Below are positions 1,439 through 13,835 of a DNA stretch of 17,009 nt, piece after piece. The notes beneath the pieces were generated by a model. It searched no databases and was not told the origin of the DNA. It saw nothing but the letters and a program-made list of their open reading frames with translations. Position 1 is the first letter of the stretch. Every line of letters starts with the position of its first letter. Made by a program: the position numbers and the translations under genes. Origin of the DNA: Treponemataceae bacterium (lineage in GTDB: Bacteria > Spirochaetota > Spirochaetia > Treponematales > Rectinemataceae); assembly GCA_963677895.2 (NCBI GenBank), contig CAXXGJ010000013.1, forward strand, positions 1 through 17,009. Reading direction: 5' to 3'.

Positions 1439-2148
1439 CTATTTCGTGTCGTGAATTTTCAGATAATTCCGCGTCGAGACCTGCAGATGCTCGCGCATAA
1501 CCCGCTCGGCTTCATCGCCGTCGTTCTTTCGAAGAATTCCGAGCAGCTGTTTATGGTATTCAACGCCGCTCAAGTGACCTTCGGAAGGTATCAGCGCTTC
1601 GCGGATAATCGGTTTCAGCAAGCCGGTCATCGATTGGACGAAGGTGGCAAAATCGGGTTTTCGGAATACTGCGCGATGAGCGTATGGAACTGCAGGTCAT
1701 AATAAATTCGCTCTTCGGTGTTGTGCTGATTTTCGATCATTTTAACGATTGTTTCCTCGAGCGCGCCGAGCTGCTCCTCGCTCAGTCGATGCTGCGCCGC
1801 GAGGCGGCAGGCATAGGGCTCGAGGAGCAAGCGCATGTTGAATACATGCGTGTAATCGATGCAGTCCATCTGGATCATGCGCTTGATCACATCGATGAGG
1901 TTTTGGGTGCCGGGCTTGCAGGTATACGTTCCTCCGCCGGTGTGGGACTCGATCAGTTGCCTTTCCTTCAGGAGCTTCAGCGCTTCGCGTATCACCGGCC
2001 TGCTCACGCCGAAGTTGAGCGCGAGATCCTTTTCGGCGGGCAGCTTCTGCCCTGACTGGGCGGCATTCTGGATGATATAGTTTTCTATTTTCGCGGCGAC
2101 ATCTTCGTAGAGATTTCTCTTTTCAACCCGATAATCAATTTTATCCAT
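1439..2148 (-). pseudogene. FadR/GntR family regulator split by a 1-bp frameshift (or sequencing error)
   Basis: ORF 1627-2148 carries the GntR HTH (LPAEKDLALNFGVSRPVIREALK) and most of the FCD domain (DLQFHTLIAQYSENPIL). ORF 1439-1630 carries the FCD end (EYHKQLL...AERVMREHL). Adding one base near 1648 restores ENPIL-ATFVQS-MTGLL. Confidence 0.85.
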
Positions 2149-2181
2149 CGTCAAACCTCATTTTCCCTGAATCGTACAATA

Positions 2182-3471
2182 CTACATTTTGCCGAGCAAC
2201 CGCGGAACCCAAAGCACGACATCGGGAATGTACGTCACTACCAGCAAGACCGCGACTTCGGCGAAGATCATGGGGGCGATTTCCCTTATGATCACTTTCA
2301 TCTTCTCGCCGGAAATGCCGGTAACGATAAACAGAAGCATTCCATAGGGAGGAGTGCAGAGCCCGATCATCGTATTGAGCGTGAAAATCACGCCGAAATG
2401 CACCATGTCGATGCCGAGCTGCCTGGCGATGGGAACGAGAATCGGCAAGAGCACCAGCTGCAGCACCGCGGAATCGACGAACATTCCCAATATGAAAAGT
2501 ACGACATTGGTGAGGAGCAGGAAAGAGCCCCTCGTCGAAGCTATGGAAATGATGAGCTGGCCCGCGAGCTGCGGAAGCCTTTCCACGGAAATGATGTAGG
2601 AGAATACATAGGCCGAACCGAGCACGAGGCCGATTTGGCCCGTGGACTTTACGGTGTCTTTCAGCACCTGCAGCATCTGGCGCGGCCCCAGCGTCCTGTA
2701 GAATACGATGGCGATGATCATCGCGTAGAAACCGGCCACGGCGGCGGCTTCGGTGGCGGTCATCACTCCGGTATAGATGCCCACGAGAAGGATCACAGGC
2801 GTCAACAGCGCGGGGAAAGCGCTGAAAATCATGCCGAAAAATTGGCTGATCGTGTATTTGATGCCCTTCGGGTAATTGCGCTTCCTCGCGATGTAGGCGA
2901 CGTATATGCAGAGCGCGATGGCGAGCAGTATCCCGGGCACCATACCGGCCAGGAAGAGACTTCCAATCGACGCTCCCGCGATCACGCCGTATATAACAAG
3001 CGGAATCGAAGGCGGAAAGATCGGCCCTATGACGGCGGAGGCCGCGGTGATCGCGGCGCTGAAGCCATCGTCGTAGCCTTCTTTGCGCATGGCATCGATT
3101 TCCATAATGCCGAGCCCAGAGGCATCGGCGACGGCCGAACCGCTCATGCCGCTGAAAATCAACGACGCGAGCACGTTGACGTGCCCCAGGCCGCCTCGCC
3201 ATCTGCCGACGAGGACATTGGCAAAGCCGAATATCTTGTCGGTGATCTTCGAGGAATTCATGAGGTTGGCGGCGAAAATGAACAGAGGAACCGCGATGAG
3301 GATGAAATTATTGAACATCTTGGCCGAGAATATTTCCACCACGATGCTCATATCCATGCCTTTGAACATTAGGTAGGATGTCGCGCTGATGAGCATGCCG
3401 ATTCCGATCGGCATTTTGACGATGAAGGCGATCACCAGAAGCGAAAGCGCGATGATTATCTGATAGCTCAT
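2182..3471 (-). CDS. dctM: TRAP transporter large permease (DctM)
   Basis: 429-aa hydrophobic protein with the motifs AVPLFIFAANLM, FSGMSGSAVADA, PIFPPSIPLVIYG and GLCTPPYG. Confidence 0.96.
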   Translation of the reverse strand: MSYQIIIALSLLVIAFIVKMPIGIGMLISATSYLMFKGMDMSIVVEIFSAKMFNNFILIAVPLFIFAANLMNSSKITDKIFGFANVLVGRWRGGLGHVNVLASLIFSGMSGSAVADASGLGIMEIDAMRKEGYDDGFSAAITAASAVIGPIFPPSIPLVIYGVIAGASIGSLFLAGMVPGILLAIALCIYVAYIARKRNYPKGIKYTISQFFGMIFSAFPALLTPVILLVGIYTGVMTATEAAAVAGFYAMIIAIVFYRTLGPRQMLQVLKDTVKSTGQIGLVLGSAYVFSYIISVERLPQLAGQLIISIASTRGSFLLLTNVVLFILGMFVDSAVLQLVLLPILVPIARQLGIDMVHFGVIFTLNTMIGLCTPPYGMLLFIVTGISGEKMKVIIREIAPMIFAEVAVLLVVTYIPDVVLWVPRLLGKM

Positions 3472-3977
3472 ACCTGTGCCTCCACATCTCCGTTTTCTGT
3501 AGGATTCTTTTTAAGGCACTTCACGAGCCTGAAAACGCTGCGGCAAATAGTGATGACGACAAAAGGAACGAAGGCGAAATAGATGATGCCCAGCGGGAAG
3601 TTGAATACCGCGCTGTAGCGTTTCATATAGAATTTGTAGAACAGGAATGTCGCGGGTATCGGGATGCAGAAGAAAACGATGGTGAGTGAATAGTTGATAA
3701 TATCGAAGGCTTTCCTGACTTTTGGCGAGGCCGACTCATAGGCTATCGAAAACACGATGTGTTCATCGGTGCGGGACGCGTAGCAGGCGCCAAGCAAAAT
3801 CGTCCAAAGATAGCCGAACTGCGAAAGCTCGTAGGGCCATACCAGAGGATGCCTGAAAACATAGCGCGACACGATCTGCAGTATGAAGGAAAGGAATAGC
3901 GCGACGAACGCGGCTACGGGAATATATATCTCCAGGATATCAAGAAACAGGTGGAATAATTTCTTCGGTTTTGCCAT
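3468..3977 (-). CDS. dctQ: TRAP transporter small permease (DctQ)
   Basis: 169 aa with about 4 TM segments and the motif QIVSRYVFRHPLVWPYEL...HI. It lies between dctP and dctM, with an ATGA overlap with dctM. Confidence 0.93.
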   Translation of the reverse strand: MAKPKKLFHLFLDILEIYIPVAAFVALFLSFILQIVSRYVFRHPLVWPYELSQFGYLWTILLGACYASRTDEHIVFSIAYESASPKVRKAFDIINYSLTIVFFCIPIPATFLFYKFYMKRYSAVFNFPLGIIYFAFVPFVVITICRSVFRLVKCLKKNPTENGDVEAQV

Positions 3978-3992
3978 TCTACGCTCCTCGGG

Positions 3993-4023
3993 AAAAGGGA
4001 GAGCCGGAAATCCGGCTCTCCCT
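3993..4023 (-). terminator. Stem-loop after dctP (intrinsic terminator/attenuator or mRNA-stabilising hairpin)
   Basis: Perfect inverted repeat AGGGAGAGCCGGA-AA-TCCGGCTCTCCCT (3996-4023), followed on the minus strand by a short T run. Confidence 0.7.
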
Positions 4024-4034
4024 AGACATCTTGC

Positions 4035-5039
4035 TCAGTACTCGAGATTCTTGATCTTGTTGTAGAGATCCAGGTCCCAATCTTTCGTCATCTGTTTGTT
4101 GCTCAAATACGCTTTCTCCGTCGCCGTCATGAAAGCCTTGACGTCGGGGGTGATAATCTTCAGGCCTTTCGAGCGGAAGAATTCCAGATCGTTCTTTTCG
4201 CTTTCAAGATTGGCGGCATCATTCCAGGCCGTGATTTCCTTGATCGCCTTGGTCATTATCTGACGTTGATCGGCGCTGAGCGACTGCCATTTTTTCTCGT
4301 TGATGGCCACGCACATCGGTTCGATCACATGACCCGTCAGGACGATGGAGCTCGTGACTTCGTACCATTTCTGGGCTCTCGTCGTCGGGAGCGGATTGTC
4401 CTGACCGTCGATGGCGCCGGTCTGGAGCCCCTGATACACTTCGGCGAAAGCCATGGGGGTGGGGTTGGCGCCGAGAGCACGGCCCATGAACAGCCAGGCC
4501 GCCGAATTGGGCATTCGAAGGTTCACTCCCGCCAGATCGGCCGGCGTCTTGATATCGCGCCCGATATTGCGCATATCGAGATTCCTGGAACCGCAGTAAA
4601 GCGCTGTGAGCCATCGGACATTAAGTTTCTTGGCTACGTCCTCGGCGACCGTCTGTCCGATCGGTCCATCCATCACGGCGCGCATATGCTTCTGGTTTTT
4701 GAAAATGTATGCCGCGGTGAACATGTTGAGGTAGGGAAGCTGGTTCGAAATAAGGAAAGGAGAGCTGAACATCATATCGAGCGTGCCGCGCGCCACGGCG
4801 TCCACTTCGCCTTCCTGGGTCATCAGGCTGCCGTTGTCGTGAATTTCCAGCAGCAGGCTGCCTTTGGAAGCGCTCTCCACTTTTTCCTTGAGCATATACA
4901 TCGCCTTGACATAGTTCACGTCGGCCGACGCTTGCGTGGAGAAAACGATTTTCGTGGGCTGATTCCCCGCGGCGAATGCGGGCATCGCCATCAACGCGGC
5001 GGCAAATACGCAGATCAGAACCTTGCTGATTTTTCTCAT
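4035..5039 (-). CDS. dctP: TRAP substrate-binding protein (DctP/SiaP-like)
   Basis: Signal peptide ending in AFA, LRMPNS with the conserved carboxylate-binding Arg, and LGANPTPMAFAEVYQGLQTGAIDGQDNP. Confidence 0.95.
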   Translation of the reverse strand: MRKISKVLICVFAAALMAMPAFAAGNQPTKIVFSTQASADVNYVKAMYMLKEKVESASKGSLLLEIHDNGSLMTQEGEVDAVARGTLDMMFSSPFLISNQLPYLNMFTAAYIFKNQKHMRAVMDGPIGQTVAEDVAKKLNVRWLTALYCGSRNLDMRNIGRDIKTPADLAGVNLRMPNSAAWLFMGRALGANPTPMAFAEVYQGLQTGAIDGQDNPLPTTRAQKWYEVTSSIVLTGHVIEPMCVAINEKKWQSLSADQRQIMTKAIKEITAWNDAANLESEKNDLEFFRSKGLKIITPDVKAFMTATEKAYLSNKQMTKDWDLDLYNKIKNLEY

Positions 5040-5061
5040 AGGTAATTCCTCCCCTATTATT

Positions 5062-5841
5062 TCAGAGCCTATGGCCCTGTATTTCCCTTAAAATGCCGCG
5101 GACCTTGCGAGCTCCGCTCATTATGTGCAGATAGTCCGTTCCGGCGCTGATGAAGTTGATACCCTTGTCGTGCCAGTAGCGAAGCACTTCGGGATCGTCG
5201 CTTCCGGTCGATACGCCGACCGATTTTCCGGCCTTCTTCAATATCGCGACGGCGCGATCGATCAGGTCGCTCGTGTTCGGGTCGAACACCCTGTTGAGTT
5301 CGCCGATAGAACCCGAGAGATCGCAGGGCCCGAATATGAAGCAGTCGATCCAGGGGTTCTTTGCCATCTCCTCGAGATTGTCGACCGCGAGCTTGCTCTC
5401 GATCTGAACGCATCTGACCATGTCGAGGCTGCCTTTGCGAATGTATTCGTCGGCGTCATCGAAGCCGTAGCGGACAGCCCTCATCGGACCAAATCCGCGG
5501 TTTCCGTACGGAGGATAGAGCGTGCTTTTCATTGCCTTGTCGAGTTCCTCGGCGTTGTTCACGACGGGGAATATCAATCCGGTCGGGCCCATCTCCAGGA
5601 CTCTTTTCGCCAGGATCGCGTCGTTCCAGGGAATGCGGACGAGGGAGTTCACCCCCGCCGCCTTTGCCGCGATGATATGCTCGAGAAGAATATGATAGTC
5701 GATAGCGGCATGTTCCGTATCAATCCAGATGAAGTCATAATCGGCGTATCCGCAGAGCTCGGTTATGCAGCTGTCCGCGAGCGATACATGCATGCCGGCC
5801 AAAGGTTCGCGCTTTCTGAGCTGCTCTTTTAGCTGCGTCAT
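5062..5841 (-). CDS. HpcH/HpaI class II pyruvate aldolase (GarL/RhmA-like)
   Basis: Motifs DFIWIDTEH, LVRIPWND, YPPYGNRGFGP, VQIES and FIFGPCDLS. RBS AAGGAGAG. Confidence 0.93.
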   Translation of the reverse strand: MTQLKEQLRKREPLAGMHVSLADSCITELCGYADYDFIWIDTEHAAIDYHILLEHIIAAKAAGVNSLVRIPWNDAILAKRVLEMGPTGLIFPVVNNAEELDKAMKSTLYPPYGNRGFGPMRAVRYGFDDADEYIRKGSLDMVRCVQIESKLAVDNLEEMAKNPWIDCFIFGPCDLSGSIGELNRVFDPNTSDLIDRAVAILKKAGKSVGVSTGSDDPEVLRYWHDKGINFISAGTDYLHIMSGARKVRGILREIQGHRL

Positions 5842-5884
5842 CAATAGTCTCTCCTTTCCAAACGGGATGAAAAGCTGTAAAGCT

Positions 5885-7919: not shown

Positions 7920-8468
7920 TTACTTTCCTCGAATACCAACGTCGAGGTCGTACATAAGCCGGTCGAGACGCTTTCCCTTTCCGGGGTCCCTGGCGGGCAT
8001 ATGGAGAAGAATTTCCCGCGCTTCCCGTGGGACGCGCTCTATAGCCCAGCTGATCTCCCTGTCGCCTATGTTCGTATCCTCGGGATGGCTGAGTTCCAGG
8101 GCGAGCGCCGCATAGGCCGCCGGGCCGAGAATGTGCTTTGTCTGTTGGATATCAGCCAGGGGATGGGTGTAGGCGCTCGACGCCGCGAGGCATGCCGCAT
8201 TAGCGGCGGCCGATGCGGCCGGATCGCTCGATTCCCTGGCTGCGGCAAAGGCCGCCAGGGCGAGGGTACGCAGCTTTGCGGTCCTGGCGCCCCCGGCCGC
8301 GAATGTCCTGATTCCCTCAATGGCTTCGCGAGGGCGCGGATCCTCACCCGAATACGTTTCGTATATACCCAAGGCCCTCTCCGCGCAGTCCGCCTCCCAG
8401 CTGCCGAGCGCCCGCAGGGAATCGAGGCTTAGGGGGAAGTATTTGGATTCAGAAGAAACAGGTGCCAT
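7920..8468 (-). CDS. Imm5-like putative immunity protein (Ala-rich helical)
   Basis: W-ADCAERAL, DPRPREAIE and AAASAAANAA...AYTHP...HILGPAAYAA match my recollection of the Imm-5-like family. Confidence 0.7.
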   Translation of the reverse strand: MAPVSSESKYFPLSLDSLRALGSWEADCAERALGIYETYSGEDPRPREAIEGIRTFAAGGARTAKLRTLALAAFAAARESSDPAASAAANAACLAASSAYTHPLADIQQTKHILGPAAYAALALELSHPEDTNIGDREISWAIERVPREAREILLHMPARDPGKGKRLDRLMYDLDVGIRGK

Positions 8469-8490: not shown

Positions 8491-8516
8491 GTATAGGGTT
8501 GAAGCATCCGTCAGGT
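8491..8516 (-). repeat. Degenerate half attC (R'' and L'' only)
   Basis: The minus strand reads ACCTGAC-GGATG-CTTCAACC-CTATA directly after the S41 stop. This has the same L'' (CTTCAACC) and 5-nt spacer as the intact sites, but AAC has become GAC and the other arm is absent. Confidence 0.65.
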
Positions 8517-8517
8517 T

Positions 8518-9888
8518 TTACCTTCCTAGGTACTCCATCGCTTTATCATATACGGGATCGATTCCTTTTTTCAGGTCTTCAATTGTTTCATGAACCCTGA
8601 TATCGGGCAATATCGAAGCGCCTTCCTTGGCGAGCATTTCTTTATTGGCTCTTGCCCAGATATAGTGGGTTGTCGCGAACTTTATTTTCGTATATGGCAA
8701 GGTAATGGGATCGGACATGAAACCATAGCGAATGGAACCGTTCCCGACTTGGTCGCCTATGATGATTCCTAAATCATTGTCTTTGATCGCGACGACGAAA
8801 AAAGTCGCCGAGCTGAATGTTTGACGACTTGTTAAAACAACGATTTTTCCCGTAAAGGAAAGTTCGCTATTTTTTGGTACCATATGCCAAAGCCCTTTGG
8901 AGATTTTAACATTTCCATGTGGATAATTGGATTTCCAGCCATCGTAGACATAGAGATCCCTAGGCTTATCGATGATATACGAAAGAAATTCATTGCACCA
9001 GAAGCTGTTTCCTCCGGAATTATTCCTTAGATCAAGAATAAGGGAGGCTGCTTTATTCTTTTGCGCGAAAACGAACGCTTCATGCCAAAACTCGGAATAG
9101 CCTGTTTGAGGCAAAGAATTTAGCTGCACATATAAACTGTTCGAATCTGGAATAATGGTGTACGTATTGCCGGGCTTTATTTCAGTAGTATCGTTTCGGA
9201 ATTTTGCCGGGATAGCGTATGCGCTTGAGGCCGAAGGGAAGGTACATGCTAAGGTAATATTCCTTTTCTCATCATTTTGTACCACAGTTAGCTTAACTTC
9301 CTCTCTTTCATTCATCAACCCCAAATGAAGAAGAAGGAAATTGGATAGCATCAGGTCAGGGCTATACACTTTCTTATAGTCATCCTGGCCCATATCCGCG
9401 GGAATAAACTGATTGGCGATTTTTTCTATTTCCCCAACTGGCTTGCCGGATATGGCAATAATTTCCGAATAAAGAATATTGGTGGCCGAGGAATCAGTGA
9501 CAGAAATAATGACGAGCTTATTATCAAACCACCAAGCGCCAATGCCCATAGATTTTCCAACCGATGTATTGATTCTCGTGTGTCCGTCCCGCAACGAAGT
9601 GATGAATGGCCCGATTTCGTAATAGAAATCAGATGCATTGCTGACATTCTTAAGCCTCTGCGCAGTCATGGCGACTAGCTCGTCATAGTCATGAGATGAA
9701 ATTGTCTGTAAAGGAGTCTTGTAAAAACCAGCATGATTTTTACGAACGTAATCAGCAAGCACTAAAAAATCCTTTTGGTAGGGATTCTCCGCGTCGATAT
9801 TTTTATAGACATATGGATTTGATGTACAGGAAGATAAAAAAACAATAAGTATCATTATAAAAAGATGGATTCTTGATTGCGTTGACAT
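8518..9888 (-). CDS. S41 family (tail-specific) peptidase, predicted lipoprotein; cassette 4
   Basis: Lipobox-like FLSSC, DGHT, LILDLRNNSGG, TFSSA (catalytic Ser region), IIGDQVG and ILPDI. RBS GGAGG. Confidence 0.88.
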   Translation of the reverse strand: MSTQSRIHLFIMILIVFLSSCTSNPYVYKNIDAENPYQKDFLVLADYVRKNHAGFYKTPLQTISSHDYDELVAMTAQRLKNVSNASDFYYEIGPFITSLRDGHTRINTSVGKSMGIGAWWFDNKLVIISVTDSSATNILYSEIIAISGKPVGEIEKIANQFIPADMGQDDYKKVYSPDLMLSNFLLLHLGLMNEREEVKLTVVQNDEKRNITLACTFPSASSAYAIPAKFRNDTTEIKPGNTYTIIPDSNSLYVQLNSLPQTGYSEFWHEAFVFAQKNKAASLILDLRNNSGGNSFWCNEFLSYIIDKPRDLYVYDGWKSNYPHGNVKISKGLWHMVPKNSELSFTGKIVVLTSRQTFSSATFFVVAIKDNDLGIIIGDQVGNGSIRYGFMSDPITLPYTKIKFATTHYIWARANKEMLAKEGASILPDIRVHETIEDLKKGIDPVYDKAMEYLGR

Positions 9889-9902
9889 TATTCCTCCAAT
9901 TA

Positions 9903-10027
9903 ATCTAACGTTGGCTTAACCTTTAAAGCCTGGCCCGAGCTACTGCGAGGGATTGGCGTGCTTTCTAAATAGGATTCCTGCACAAACCATGACAAAAGGC
10001 TATATAAGGTTGAAGCAGTTGTTAGTT
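9903..10027 (-). repeat. attC site (125 bp)
   Basis: Minus strand: R'' AACTAAC, 5 nt, L'' CTTCAACC ... L' GGTTAAG, 5 nt, R' GTTAGAT. L'' has the extra unpaired base typical of attC. The site starts 5 nt after the HNH stop. Confidence 0.9.
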
Positions 10028-10032
10028 ATCTC

Positions 10033-10758
10033 CTATTGAATACTATTTATTGTGTTCTTGACTTCATCAATAGTATATGCCGGTTTCTTTCTATGTATAA
10101 TTGAATGACAATTAGGACAAAGCGGCCTTAAATCTTTAATCGGATCTACTTTATACTCATGCCTTATTGTTGATAATTCAATAATATGATGAACTTGTAT
10201 ATAATCTGCTCCAAGTATTCCATATACTTCTGAAAGTACTATTCCGCAAACAAAACATCTATTTCCATAATACTCTATACACTTTTTTCTTGCTTTCAAA
10301 TCTCTTTCATAAATATTTACATAGACTTTTTTTGCTTTTCCTTCAATATAGTCATCTTCACTTTCTGTTAACAAATAATTTTCTTCAATATTATTTATTA
10401 GACTATTATACTTTTGCCATATTTCTCGAATTCCATTAATTTTACCTTTCCCTAAATTTTCGAAGTAATCTATGTGCTTTATAACTGAGGATAAAGCGAC
10501 TTTTAGTACAGATAAACCTTCTTCATTATAAATATGGTTAAGATAATATTCAGTGGCATATTCTTGCATTGTCCGAGAGTAATATTTCCCCGTATGCATA
10601 TATTTATAATTATTAATATAAAATGTTGCTGAACTTCTATTAATATTATGTTTATTCCATAATTCATCCAATTCTGATGAAAGTGTATTACTATTGCTAT
10701 TTACTTTTTTTGCAGAGTTATACAGATCTTTGATCATTGCTTCAGTAATTTTAGACAT
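10033..10758 (-). CDS. HNH endonuclease, McrA-like (candidate type IV restriction enzyme); cassette 3
   Basis: C-terminal EG...YERD-xx-AR-xx-C...CFVC...IQVHH...DLRPLCPNCHSIIH zinc-HNH. RBS AAGGAG. Confidence 0.9.
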   Translation of the reverse strand: MSKITEAMIKDLYNSAKKVNSNSNTLSSELDELWNKHNINRSSATFYINNYKYMHTGKYYSRTMQEYATEYYLNHIYNEEGLSVLKVALSSVIKHIDYFENLGKGKINGIREIWQKYNSLINNIEENYLLTESEDDYIEGKAKKVYVNIYERDLKARKKCIEYYGNRCFVCGIVLSEVYGILGADYIQVHHIIELSTIRHEYKVDPIKDLRPLCPNCHSIIHRKKPAYTIDEVKNTINSIQ

Positions 10759-10789
10759 CTTTTCTCCTTTTTTTTCGCCAAAGGCGTCT

Positions 10790-10890
10790 TTCTAACATTT
10801 GTTTAACCTGCAAGGCCGTGTATTGGTGCATATTCTGCTGAGGAGCGTAGCGATCACAGGCAAAAAGTGTGACAATAGCATTGTCAGGTT
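10790..10890 (-). repeat. attC site lacking R'' and start of L''
   Basis: R' GTTAGAA and L' GGTTAAA are intact, and the arms AACCTG-CAA/TTG-T-CAGGTT and TATTG/CAATA pair. There is no AAC triplet at the expected R'' position (about 10900-10906), and the Shedu stop codon lies inside the arm. Confidence 0.75.
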
Positions 10891-12077
10891 TCTGACTCTT
10901 TAACAATGAATGATGCCCTTTCGAATAATTCATCATATGTTATTATTTCTATTCCACTAATGCTACGGCGAAATAATTCAAATGACGAGTATTTACTTTC
11001 ATTTATTCCATTATCAGTAACAAATTCATCTAAAGACCCAATAACCAAAAAAGCTCTTGGCTTATACAAAAACAATTGTTCACCAGTAAGATTATCTTCT
11101 ACATCTTTAACTTCTATTTTTGTTTTTATGTTTTCAATTGATCTTTGAATAGTTCGCTGCACTTGAGCAATAGCACCGGCTAATTCATCAGAAATTGCCC
11201 AGCTTTCACCACGATACGCATCTTTTATTTGCTTTAATAGTTGAGCTTTATGCGTTTTAATTTCAGCAAAACAAATTGAATTAATAATACCTCGTGTTTT
11301 TAATAAGGCATCAATTCGTTTTCCTCTTTGAAAAACAGTTGCACCACTCATAACTTGTTCAAGTTTTTTACCGTCTAGTGCTGCATTAAAAATATAGCTT
11401 AGTCCATATCCCATGATCCAAGTATTTAGTTCGAAATATTGTTGCCAAACAGATTCATCTCCATGACATTCGTGTTCAGCTTTGTAAGTGTCAAAATACA
11501 ATTCATCTTCAAGTAATTGCTTAAAAACTTCTAATTGTTGCTTTCTATATCCTAAAGCGACAATATCTTTTTTTGTGATATTATGTTTAATTGCATCAAT
11601 CAAAATATCTTGATTATCATTAACAATTCTAGAAGCTTGTTCCACTGAGAGCAAAACAGCATCCAATGCTGAATCATCGATTATTATTTTGTCTTGATTA
11701 TTTAAATTTGATTCATACAACCCCTTAAGAAAATTATACAGGTTTCTAATCTCAGAATCATGAAATGAATATGCTGATTTATGTGGATTTCCGGTATCAA
11801 CTGAAAATGTTTGAATTATCAAATCTTGTACTTGACGAGGATCTTCTATTAGTAATGCCTTCAACTGGTGTTTTCCGCCATGCTTTATTGCTAATAGGAT
11901 TTCATTCTTAACCTTAATGAATATCTTCTGTTCATCACTTTCCGTGACTTTATGAGCAAAGCGTTTTTTCTTTCCAGTAAATTTATCAGTAAACTCTCTT
12001 GATATATATAATCTTCCTTTTAAGCGTTGTTGAAAATATGAGTAATCTTCGGTATTGTATTCAGTATCAATAGCCAT
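10884..12077 (-). CDS. sduA: Shedu anti-phage nuclease SduA (DUF4263); cassette 2
   Basis: ESVWQQYFELNTWIMG, RIDALL, EIKT (PD-D/ExK), ELAGAIAQVQ, PRAFLVIG and FELFRR-EIITYDEL are the hallmark DUF4263 motifs. Confidence 0.92.
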   Translation of the reverse strand: MAIDTEYNTEDYSYFQQRLKGRLYISREFTDKFTGKKKRFAHKVTESDEQKIFIKVKNEILLAIKHGGKHQLKALLIEDPRQVQDLIIQTFSVDTGNPHKSAYSFHDSEIRNLYNFLKGLYESNLNNQDKIIIDDSALDAVLLSVEQASRIVNDNQDILIDAIKHNITKKDIVALGYRKQQLEVFKQLLEDELYFDTYKAEHECHGDESVWQQYFELNTWIMGYGLSYIFNAALDGKKLEQVMSGATVFQRGKRIDALLKTRGIINSICFAEIKTHKAQLLKQIKDAYRGESWAISDELAGAIAQVQRTIQRSIENIKTKIEVKDVEDNLTGEQLFLYKPRAFLVIGSLDEFVTDNGINESKYSSFELFRRSISGIEIITYDELFERASFIVKESET

Positions 12078-12110
12078 TCTTTATCTTTTTCTCCTCGGTC
12101 CGAAGGGTCA

Positions 12111-12176
12111 ACCTAACATTGGCTTAACCTTTAAATCCGTGCCAAAGGATTTATAAGGTTGAAGCAGTTGTTTGGC
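12111..12176 (-). repeat. attC site (66 bp)
   Basis: Minus strand: R'' GCCAAAC, AACTG, L'' CTTCAACC, TTATAAATCC loop GGATTTAAA, L' GGTTAAG, CCAAT, R' GTTAGGT. This is a near-perfect hairpin with two extrahelical bases. Confidence 0.93.
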
Positions 12177-12189
12177 AGATCTTAATTAT

Positions 12190-13302
12190 TTATTCTTCAG
12201 ATTTAGTATTTACTATTCTAAATGGCTGAGGAATTGTTTTTTCAGGTTCTTTTCTTGCATTTTTTAAATAATCAGTAATGCTTTTCTTTAAATCGACTCC
12301 CCATGTTGGATTTCTTTGATCATATATAATTACCCTTAAGTGCCGTAGATCGAATGGCACATCCTCCAAATTTCCTGAAATAAATATAACTGGTTTTGAT
12401 TTTGCATGTGACAATCCTAACTCATAAAATACATTCGGATTTTTTCCGGTTAAATCAGCTAACAACACTTTTGCCTTAACAATTTGTTCCCAAACTTGTT
12501 CAATAACGCTTCCTGATGAAAATAAGCTATCTGCTCTGATTGGCTCGTATCCAGCATCCTTAATTGCTGGTGCATAAAGGTCCTGATAATACTTATCAAA
12601 CCAATCACCAAATGGCATTAAAACAAAACAAGAATCCAAAAACTCTCTTGTACTAATTGGTTCTTTACTTATTATAGCTTCATCATTCCGAATTATCTCT
12701 CTAGTTGTTTTTTTAATGTCTAGAGGTTCATCAATTTTTTCCACTGGTGCAAATGCTTTTAAATACTCTAAATTGCTTTTATAATTTTTTATAAATGTTT
12801 CAACACGATCTCTTTGAACAGAAAACTCTTTTACTATAGTATTTATAAAGAATTCATCTTCTGGTGGTTTCTTACCTTTATAAAACTCATAAACATTTTT
12901 AAATAGATCAACATTCAAAAAAGAATCCATTAACGCTTTTTGGCGAATAGTTGAAGAAACTGGAGAAACTATATTTGATCCAATTTCTGTTATAGTAACT
13001 CTTACTTTAACACCAGATCCATCAACGAGACCATATAAATTTGCTGATCTAAGTTGTTCTCTAAATCTCCAATCTCCTGACTTATTAAAGCCAACAGCTT
13101 TTGCTAAATCTTCTGAATCAACCGGATTACCGGCATACTTTTCTTCTATAGCTTTTGGTATTTCTAAAGCTTCTTCAAGTGTCTGCTTCGGAAAATTCCA
13201 AGGAGAGTTGTTTTCAGTCTTTTTCTTATTTACTTTTTCAACAATAGGTTCAATTTCTTGTGCTTTATTTTCTATTTTACCTTCAGTCTGCTCAGTACTC
13301 AT
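12190..13302 (-). CDS. Winged-helix-like N-terminus fused to nucleoside 2-deoxyribosyltransferase/TIR-like domain; cassette 1
   Basis: C-terminal CFVLMPF...IRAD...LADLTGKNPNVFYELGLSHA...VPFDLRHLRVIIY. N-terminal FPKQTLEEAL...LAKAVG...SANLYGLV...ITEIG. ATG 13302 follows AAGGAGA. Confidence 0.8.
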   Translation of the reverse strand: MSTEQTEGKIENKAQEIEPIVEKVNKKKTENNSPWNFPKQTLEEALEIPKAIEEKYAGNPVDSEDLAKAVGFNKSGDWRFREQLRSANLYGLVDGSGVKVRVTITEIGSNIVSPVSSTIRQKALMDSFLNVDLFKNVYEFYKGKKPPEDEFFINTIVKEFSVQRDRVETFIKNYKSNLEYLKAFAPVEKIDEPLDIKKTTREIIRNDEAIISKEPISTREFLDSCFVLMPFGDWFDKYYQDLYAPAIKDAGYEPIRADSLFSSGSVIEQVWEQIVKAKVLLADLTGKNPNVFYELGLSHAKSKPVIFISGNLEDVPFDLRHLRVIIYDQRNPTWGVDLKKSITDYLKNARKEPEKTIPQPFRIVNTKSEE

Positions 13303-13335
13303 TTTATCTCCTTTCATTGTCTTGAATATTATTCT

Positions 13336-13352
13336 GCCTAACAATAATTAGA
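13336..13352 (-). other. Core recombination site at array head (attI-like or secondary attG-type site)
   Basis: The minus strand reads TCTAA-TTATT-GTTAGGC, a perfect GTTRRRY with no upstream attC hairpin. GTTAGGCAGA is complementary (9/10) to TCTGCCAAAC at the other end of the same cassette. Confidence 0.7.
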
Positions 13353-13379
13353 AGGTTCTTTAATATTACTCCTGTGTGA

Positions 13380-13835
13380 TCACCATTGATTCAGCTTCCT
13401 TAACGCTACTAGTGCCCTATCCAATCCATCCGCAAACTGCTTAGTATCCTTGGCTATCCTATGCGACCCTTTAGGCGAGGCCGGCGCCATGCCCAAAAAG
13501 CGGAGCTCGGCGGCGGCGTCGCGGAGGGAGCGGCGCTCGGAGGCGTTTTCTTTGGTGTAGAGTTCGCCACAGTCGTTGATCGCGGCAATGCCCGCTTCCG
13601 CGAGGCGCTCGGCGAAGGGGATGTCGCGGGTGACGACGAGGTCGCCTAACGCGGCGTTTCCTTCGATGAAATGGTCGGCGGCGTCAGGTCCCGCGGGCAC
13701 GAGGGTTGCGAGGGCTGGGGGAACGTCGGGGAGCTTGCGGGCCGAGACGAAGCGCACAGGGATGTTTGCGCTTCGGCGCACAAGGATAGGGCGGATGTCG
13801 CGCGGGGCGCTGTCCCCATCCACCCAGATCGTCAT
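13380..13835 (-). CDS. yaiI: YaiI/YqxD (DUF188/UPF0178) family protein
   Basis: MTIWVDGDSAP, GPDAADHFI, GDLVVTRDIPFA and C-terminal FADGLDR. ATGA overlap with the manA stop. Confidence 0.9.
   Translation of the reverse strand: MTIWVDGDSAPRDIRPILVRRSANIPVRFVSARKLPDVPPALATLVPAGPDAADHFIEGNAALGDLVVTRDIPFAERLAEAGIAAINDCGELYTKENASERRSLRDAAAELRFLGMAPASPKGSHRIAKDTKQFADGLDRALVALRKLNQW

Follow-up and report, generated by a model that had tools for sequence, protein, structure and literature searches.

An integrase-less array of four gene cassettes at a short attI-like core behind yaiI in a Treponemataceae genome, probably supplied by a distant integron

Contig C13 of the Treponemataceae bacterium assembly GCA_963677895.2 (here G000; 3.5 Mb, 93% complete, 5.5% contaminated) is 17,009 nt long and was analysed as a whole (the window). 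Directly behind the gene yaiI it carries an array of four gene cassettes without an integron integrase gene (intI), joined to the chromosome at a short core that resembles an integron attI site. From sequence comparison we consider it probable (roughly two chances in three) that this core is a satellite docking site for the distant, single chromosomal integrase of the genus. The attC sites of the array belong to the same family as those of a large main array elsewhere in the assembly, the 16 bases to the left of the crossover match the true attI cores of the Rectinemataceae in register, and a comparison of sister versions of the locus indicates that new cassettes enter at one fixed G and push older ones distally, single cassettes being missing precisely at G|TT.

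In the mechanism that we propose, the integrase (IntI) of the distant integron would insert circular cassettes in trans, by recombination between attC and an attI-type site. With its recognition bases on the left-hand side of the crossover, the site would outlast each insertion and be used again. The cassettes would probably be read through from the upstream housekeeping operon of yaiI, as the gap between yaiI and the head of the array contained no terminator-like and no promoter-like site in a scan that stayed at chance level over the window (18 sites versus 17.1 expected). Useful large defence genes might then be kept while the distal attC sites decay, which would fix these genes in place.

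Results and Discussion

Layout of the array and state of its attC sites

The four ORFs lie on the minus strand (Table 1) behind yaiI, the final gene of a run of dinG-like helicase, manA and yaiI, and host genes flank the array on both sides (3.6 kb upstream, 8.5 kb downstream). This manA has its close relatives in spirochaetes of the Rectinemataceae. Each ORF starts 21-40 nt past a G|TTAG (G at 13342, 12117, 10796 and 9909); the island has six GTTAG motifs on its minus strand, four of them being the cassette junctions. An initial annotation of this DNA had described four AT-rich, same-strand ORFs right after yaiI in GC-rich surroundings. Coordinates, GC profile and the PF02639 match of yaiI agree with this, the island having 26-42% GC and the flanks 52-66%, although the gene for an S41-family peptidase itself reaches 41%.

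The same annotation had framed every ORF with canonical attC sites, which we can follow for two of them. A covariance model built solely from 41 attC sites of another contig (C39) was passed by both sites proposed for such a test, the long attC with 102 bits and the short one with 69 bits. Both form a hairpin with R''/R' and L''/L' pairing and an extrahelical base; folding by itself gave z = -4.3 for the short site and an unexceptional z = -1.5 for the long one. The remaining two do not form this hairpin. At the attC after the Shedu gene (21.8 bits) the AAC of R'' is lost and the Shedu stop codon occupies the L'' position, and the stub behind the S41 gene was missed by the covariance model and gave no hairpin on folding. 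The array has two intact attC sites, a third that has lost R'' and a half-site as the fourth. Owing to the damage at the site between them, the Shedu and HNH genes would move as one excisable unit. G13342, listed earlier among the core sites, does not belong to an attC: the bases before it form an attI-like core.

Between G|TT and the ribosome site we find a short conserved leader hairpin of the GAC(G/C)CC-TT(C/T)GG type (12080-12110 and 10765-10790), and a hairpin of this type also heads many cassettes of C39. Positions 9389-13611 are matched without differences by contigs of run X1, possibly the source sample; joints between attC sites that stem from repeated arms were left out of account.

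The attI-like head

The matrix for the 16 bases left of the G was derived from 16 G|TT sites located 136-170 nt after the intI genes of relatives (13 unique 16-mers), and was used to score the G(T/A)T and GTA triplets of G000, 264,649 in number. The window head ranked 6th and the heads of two further versions of the locus in the same assembly (contigs C4 and C28) 5th and 11th; rank 7 fell to the start of a different satellite (C6:173455), which had not been given to the matrix beforehand. With 13.8 the window head scores within the range of true attI sites left out one at a time (11.2-20.6 for 12 of 13), and attC right arms score lower (median 4.3, maximum 13.0, n=46). Its core is identical to the attI of two relatives at 11-12 of 16 positions, and the attI of a genome of another genus (G019), which lay outside the training set and scores 16.2, has CTAATTATT|GTTAG in common with the window. 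In a comparison of eight versions the core is invariant at 7 of its 16 positions and the upstream stretch at 1 of 20, and G|TA and G|CT variants of the junction occur at heads.

The head thus has the cognate sequence of a simple attI site and has received repeated insertions in order of age, and it lacks the upstream platform and the Pc promoter of an attI. Only 37 nt separate the yaiI stop from the G, which leaves no room for intI or for an attI platform of ~160 nt; nor is the head a copy of that platform, since the attI region of the relative G001 has no blastn match in G000. Two other identities were considered. A leftover attC right arm was rejected because AA stands at -7/-6, as in attI, rather than at -8/-7, and because GAA is present at -16. 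The idea of a mere -10 box was dropped, since neither inspection by eye nor the promoter scan showed a -35 at a suitable distance.

Turnover at the yaiI locus

G000 contains three copies of yaiI with proteins 91-92% alike and flanks 95-98% identical, which by their sequences are most simply explained as co-binned sister strains. Altogether six versions of the locus, all kin and from mixed assemblies, have a readable first ORF: the window, C4 and C28 of G000, the genomes G001 and G002, and a metagenome contig (L070). No two of these first ORFs are alike (370 aa; 1086 aa, NACHT; 296 aa, DUF4145; 600 aa, AAA_21 ATPase; a remnant of the 107-aa type; 492 aa, ATPase), and the junction of each first cassette is a G|TT or G|TA that follows the yaiI stop by a few tens of bases. 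Two short loci, L069 and one in G017 (another genus than the window strain), have the same type of site with different DNA to the right of the G and end before any attC.

A 107-aa cassette is joined to the G itself in G002, and in C4, C28 and G001 a full attC precedes this cassette; it is missing from the window, and there the S41 gene is joined exactly at G|TT. The S41 gene is common to all five versions that reach that far, and in four of them it runs without attC into an FAD-oxidoreductase-like gene (by eye) or a remnant. Compared in this way, the array shows the polarity of an integron, new cassettes standing at the head and old, decayed ones at the tail. An unvarying four-gene block in relatives, named early on as a test, is refuted by six different first cassettes at the same G. 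The idea of a cassette hotspot served in trans gains support, with an attC model that holds and first cassettes that vary, albeit with the serving intI absent from G000. The Imm5-like gene does not form the fixed right border that had been assumed, as 2.3-17 kb of other DNA separates it from the S41 gene in the sister versions. In C4 (13170-20150) a duplicated S41 3' end together with the start of the next gene brackets an insertion of ~7 kb with transporter-like genes.

In a survey of yaiI (62 rows, 49 distinct loci after removal of 13 duplicates) the attI-like site was found only in G001, G002, L069, L070 and G017; in the five scored relatives 22-40 nt separate the G from the yaiI stop. The other 44 loci are without the site. 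In G017 (C135, L057) the head lies 22 nt past the stop and is followed by a cassette-type leader, the contig ending 280 nt further on; what follows this leader looks like the start of a methyltransferase of a type I restriction-modification (RM) system.

The main array and the missing integrase

The attC arms of the window family recur at 51 sites on C39 (46 kb, 33% GC), whose trained model finds the window sites, so that window array and main array have one attC family in common. Small clusters of the same arms are found on contigs C2, C4, C5, C6, C18, C28 and C30 of G000, with weak matches also on C25 and C9. C39 (L082-L084) represents a sedentary integron array with attC sites of ~125 nt and small cassettes, among them GNATs, four toxin-antitoxin types and methyltransferases; it is truncated by the contig ends, and its attC sites are near-uniform. 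The cassette pools also touch at the protein level: ORF1 of the window is 30% identical to a cassette protein of C39, and the 107-aa cassette protein 74% identical to a main-array cassette of G001. In G001 we counted at least 150 attC sites, mostly in a 140-kb array behind intI, and no attC site was found by the model in G002, G013 and G042, where the sites are probably unassembled or diverged.

The window contains no match to TIGR02249, the integron integrase model, and no ORF that by eye resembles a tyrosine recombinase or a transposase, as the initial annotation had stated for the former. A search of the genome for intI and attC arms, which it had proposed, yielded the arms but no intI. The search covered 41 genomes with G000 among them; 24 had intI above the model's cut-off, including 17 of the 24 family members and both same-genus genomes, where it adjoins an Fe-ADH gene on contigs other than that of yaiI. 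Where intI and yaiI were compared in relatives, they lie on different contigs or 1.4 Mb apart. G000 also lacks orthologues of the usual neighbours of intI in the genus, and C39 is truncated by contig ends, so the integron head of G000 is probably unassembled.

The intI genes of the family are oriented towards their arrays, as in Treponema (according to the accessible part of PMC3607928). Their frames of 400-570 aa include an N-terminal extension beyond the TIGR02249 model. Unlike in other family members, an integrase with an RHSFATH-like motif in G063 (C7, L155:10263-11648) faces away from the array. In G001 three contigs (L063-L065) each carry a copy of intI, with upstream genes that resemble each other; these copies probably stem from co-binned strains.

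Defence genes in satellites and main arrays

The second cassette is assigned to Shedu SduA with strong sequence support: it is a single gene with a DUF4263/SduA_C nuclease domain and a D...EIK motif from residue 256. The HNH ORF is a weak candidate for a type IV restriction enzyme of the McrA type, in which an HNH domain accompanies one that recognises modified DNA; its mREase_IV match is weak and confined to the HNH part, and it has no NCBIfam match. For ORF1 a role in defence may be supposed from one PADLOC match to an effector domain (E 1.2e-9) and from a structural model (pLDDT 80.7) with a helical N-domain and an NDT/Rcl-type, TIR-like N-glycosidase C-domain, in which Glu294 is conserved. 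The fold search with ORF1 returned no whole-length match and, as best sensible ones, NDT/DNPH1/MilB at E ~2e-3; among its 2,659 homologues at E<=1e-20, the 120 listed are all unnamed or hypothetical. The S41 peptidase has no PADLOC match. Of the three cassettes counted earlier as known or candidate immunity genes, Shedu is the strong one, the HNH ORF and ORF1 being candidates.

Reading PADLOC at E<=1e-8, with generic 'mad2' methyltransferase matches removed on both sides, we found matches for 16 of 47 satellite ORFs versus 6 of 209 main-array ORFs (C39 0/59, G001 6/150; Fisher p=5e-9, a value that overstates the difference since the compared versions are kin, and an enrichment that is partly a length effect since PADLOC favours long known proteins). 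These counts rest on 59 of the 78 called ORFs of C39 (short and antisense ones left out) and on the longest 150 of 170 in G001, and the satellite set leaves out a PDC-M19 pair on C6 and the reverse transcriptase and PolA-like genes on C30, whose cassette status is unclear. Median cassette length is 1631 bp for 13 cassettes of short satellites (one length a rough estimate, G001 satellites other than that at yaiI outside the set) versus 826 bp on C39. On average, satellites are richer in defence genes than main arrays, with clear exceptions, and to this extent the claimed enrichment holds, if not for every satellite. The first positions of such satellites also make up a shortlist in the search for defence genes, with the ORF1 family as one candidate.

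Other satellites and a distributed integron

Heads of this kind are not confined to yaiI. In G000 six of eight satellite versions have a head score of at least 8, and in G001 five of the six satellites examined (the main-array tail scrambled by insertion sequences (IS) left out) score 8.5-18.6. At a second shared locus, beside a gene that we take to be DUF72-like, three versions have three different first cassettes. The flank of the C6 satellite was found in only one (G005) of four relatives, there without a head, and for a satellite of G001 that adjoins a type I RM locus no orthologous flank was found in five genomes.

It is conceivable, although we would put it at distinctly less than even odds, that the integron of the genus is a distributed one: a single IntI would serve several minimal attI cores of independent origin in ordinary intergenic DNA, the satellites deploying large defence cassettes and the main array storing small ones. 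Such independent cores would then represent evolution from attG, the genomic hotspots discussed below, to attI, caught in progress.

The contents of several satellites deserve mention. On C6 of G000 (L089:5409-6815) a UG17-type reverse transcriptase cassette (PADLOC E 4e-131) stands behind a 191-aa ORF and an attI-like head, and the PDC-M19A/B pair follows after the array. In a prophage-like region on C30 (L091:2695-5863) a first cassette without an ORF and its attC precede a UG9-type reverse transcriptase that is split in two ORFs, plus a PolA-like gene. Contig C3 of G001 has one satellite in a prophage-like region with DUF4297-HerA and NucC as cassettes (L124:10928-19455) and one with Hachiman HamAB, the satellite beside the type I RM locus (L125:8232-15550), so that two-gene systems are carried as cassettes in both. 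Two tandem satellite arrays at 1635-1654 kb of the same contig (L122-L123) have heads with 12 upstream bases in common, i.e., a duplicated head, and mostly non-defence cassettes.

Alternative explanations

An attG-type genomic hotspot as described by Loot et al., i.e., a chance AT-rich GWT that IntI hits frequently and whose likeness to attI is that of any good IntI target, seems unlikely to us, although the two readings partly overlap, attI having been suggested to derive from such hotspots (10.1101/2022.09.11.507474). It would agree with a short head in an ordinary intergenic gap, with the lack of any copy of the attI platform, with a core no better conserved than synonymous sites and with the G|TA and G|CT variants, and the absence of the head from 44 of 49 yaiI loci, in other lineages, points to a local origin. 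However, an attG hotspot requires 9 nt to either side of its central cut, with a CRGM among those on the right (10.1101/2022.09.11.507474); at +6..+9, where this would lie, cassettes have taken the place of the original flank in all occupied versions. Each insertion exchanges the right side and yet the site has been reused in six versions, which is the behaviour of an attI.

The array might instead be all that is left of a complete integron after deletion of intI at this place, or a main-array fragment shifted here by rearrangement. Loss of intI and rearrangement are standard origins of integrase-less attC clusters (available sections of PMC4889954), the distal attC sites are decayed, and both the IS-scrambled main-array tail of G001 and the outlying attC loci of G019, near IS-like genes, illustrate such events. 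We nevertheless regard this origin as improbable and largely refuted: true attI sites follow intI at 136-170 nt, whereas the G lies 22-40 nt past the yaiI stop in the relatives and 37 nt past it in the window, with no remnant between, same-genus intI genes sit beside the Fe-ADH gene on other contigs, no window ORF looks like a transposase, and a moved fragment would not give different first cassettes at one fixed G. Still less credible, and in our view very improbable, is a former satellite attI that is now dead and frozen because the strain lost intI. While G000 has no intI and two of four attC sites are damaged, the missing orthologues of the intI neighbours in a mixed, 93% complete assembly, the presence of a 51-site array with near-uniform attC sites cut by contig ends, and the intact attC of the first cassette all speak against it.

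Several observations, besides the limits of the defence comparison given above, weigh against the docking-site reading itself. In G000 the TIGR02249 search returned seven tyrosine-recombinase matches, none near the cut-off, tblastn with the IntI of relatives gave only matches of ~30%, and the sole explanation for this absence is that the neighbours of intI are missing as well. With an AT-rich background the matrix ranks drop to 33 (window), 176 (C4) and 151 (C28), the training sites were chosen by eye, three of them from the same genus, and some sister heads score low (5.1 at yaiI in G001, 3.5 on C5), the satellite on C18 beginning at a decayed attC arm. Pairwise identity of the core (0.74; 20 nt upstream 0.50) is about that of the four-fold sites of yaiI (0.69), so it does not demonstrate selection on the core. 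None of five outlying attC loci in G019 has a clean head and most lie near IS-like genes, the G001 cassette at the DUF72 site resembles a GNAT (by eye), and two G001 satellites are mostly non-defence, with 1 of 17 ORFs matched.

Relation to known systems

With two attC sites or more and no nearby intI the array is a CALIN, an attC cluster without an integron-integrase, as defined in the accessible text of PMC4889954, and it is not a complete integron, in which intI stands next to attI and array. The same text lists integration at secondary sites among the origins of CALINs, reports that half of them occur in genomes with intI elsewhere, and describes an attI search in IntegronFinder by exact match to classes 1-3 only. 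Compared with CALINs as presented there, the array described here has an identifiable entry point, a cognate attI-like core that is reused, judging by the comparison of versions. In Xanthomonas, CALINs likewise occupy few conserved chromosomal loci apart from a single intI locus; the portion of that study available to us (10.1101/2025.06.18.660453) reads them as ancestral activity and describes no attI-like head, whereas we observe proximal turnover among close strains.

Insertion by IntI outside the integron at GWT would be what our locus has in common with attG sites and single attC sites lacking integron-integrases (SALINs) (10.1101/2022.09.11.507474), where resident promoters can drive expression of the cassettes and the attC can be lost. 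Those sites differ from attI and have motifs on both sides of a central cut; the window site is attI-like on the left only and stays in use. The sedentary integron of the Treponema type has one attI per integron (Wu et al. 2013, PMC3607928, whose accessible part does not deal with Rectinemataceae), whereas several attI-like heads occur in the genus studied here. Shedu is the second commonest system in the sedentary-integron cassettes of Darracq et al. (10.1101/2024.07.02.601686), the available part of which also names PD-T7-4 and type IV restriction; the small systems there lie inside the big array, and ours are mostly outside it in larger cassettes. Attachment sites of secondary nature that resemble attI are mentioned in the accessible part of PMC10127599. 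CALINs, CALINs at fixed loci (in Xanthomonas) and defence cassettes are therefore already published, and a literature search, most subscription journals lying outside its reach, returned no description of one integrase that serves several cognate attI-like heads.

The origin and the activity of integrase-less cassette clusters are an open question. For one lineage this locus suggests an answer that can be put to the test, namely a host site of 23 bases with attI-like behaviour, of which natural variants exist for comparison. If the docking-site reading is true, de novo origin of an attI is possible, and a CALIN can be an active point of cassette capture instead of debris.

Features of the window

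Table 1. Coordinates of the array and its neighbours in the 17,009-nt window.
Feature	Position	Strand	Remarks
yaiI/DUF188 (PF02639)	13380..13835	-	64% GC; fixed left anchor, not a cassette
attI-like core	13336..13358	-	16 nt + G|TTAGGC; crossover after G13342; 37 nt past yaiI stop
Cassette 1 ORF (ORF1), 370 aa	12190..13302	-	helical N-domain + NDT/Rcl-type C-domain; candidate defence gene
Short attC, 66 nt, intact	12111..12176	-	belongs to the attC family of the genome, with internal shortening
Cassette 2 ORF, Shedu nuclease SduA, 397 aa	10884..12077	-	PF14082 E 8.7e-29; PADLOC SduA E 1.2e-144
Damaged attC	10790..10904	-	L'-R' arm intact (G10796); R''/L'' corrupted
Cassette 3 ORF, HNH endonuclease, 241 aa	10033..10758	-	PF01844 E 9e-7; PADLOC mREase_IV E 1.5e-5
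Long attC, 125 nt, intact	9903..10027	-	family-typical
Cassette 4 ORF, S41-family peptidase	8518..9888	-	41% GC; lipoprotein-like N-terminus (by eye); oldest cassette
attC half-site (R''-L'' stub)	8492..8516	-	directly past S41 stop
Imm5-like gene	7920..8468	-	62% GC; resident

Downstream of the array, the region 1627-5844 encodes a GntR-like regulator, a TRAP-type transporter and an HpcH-like aldolase (by eye), which correspond to ordinary sugar-acid uptake.

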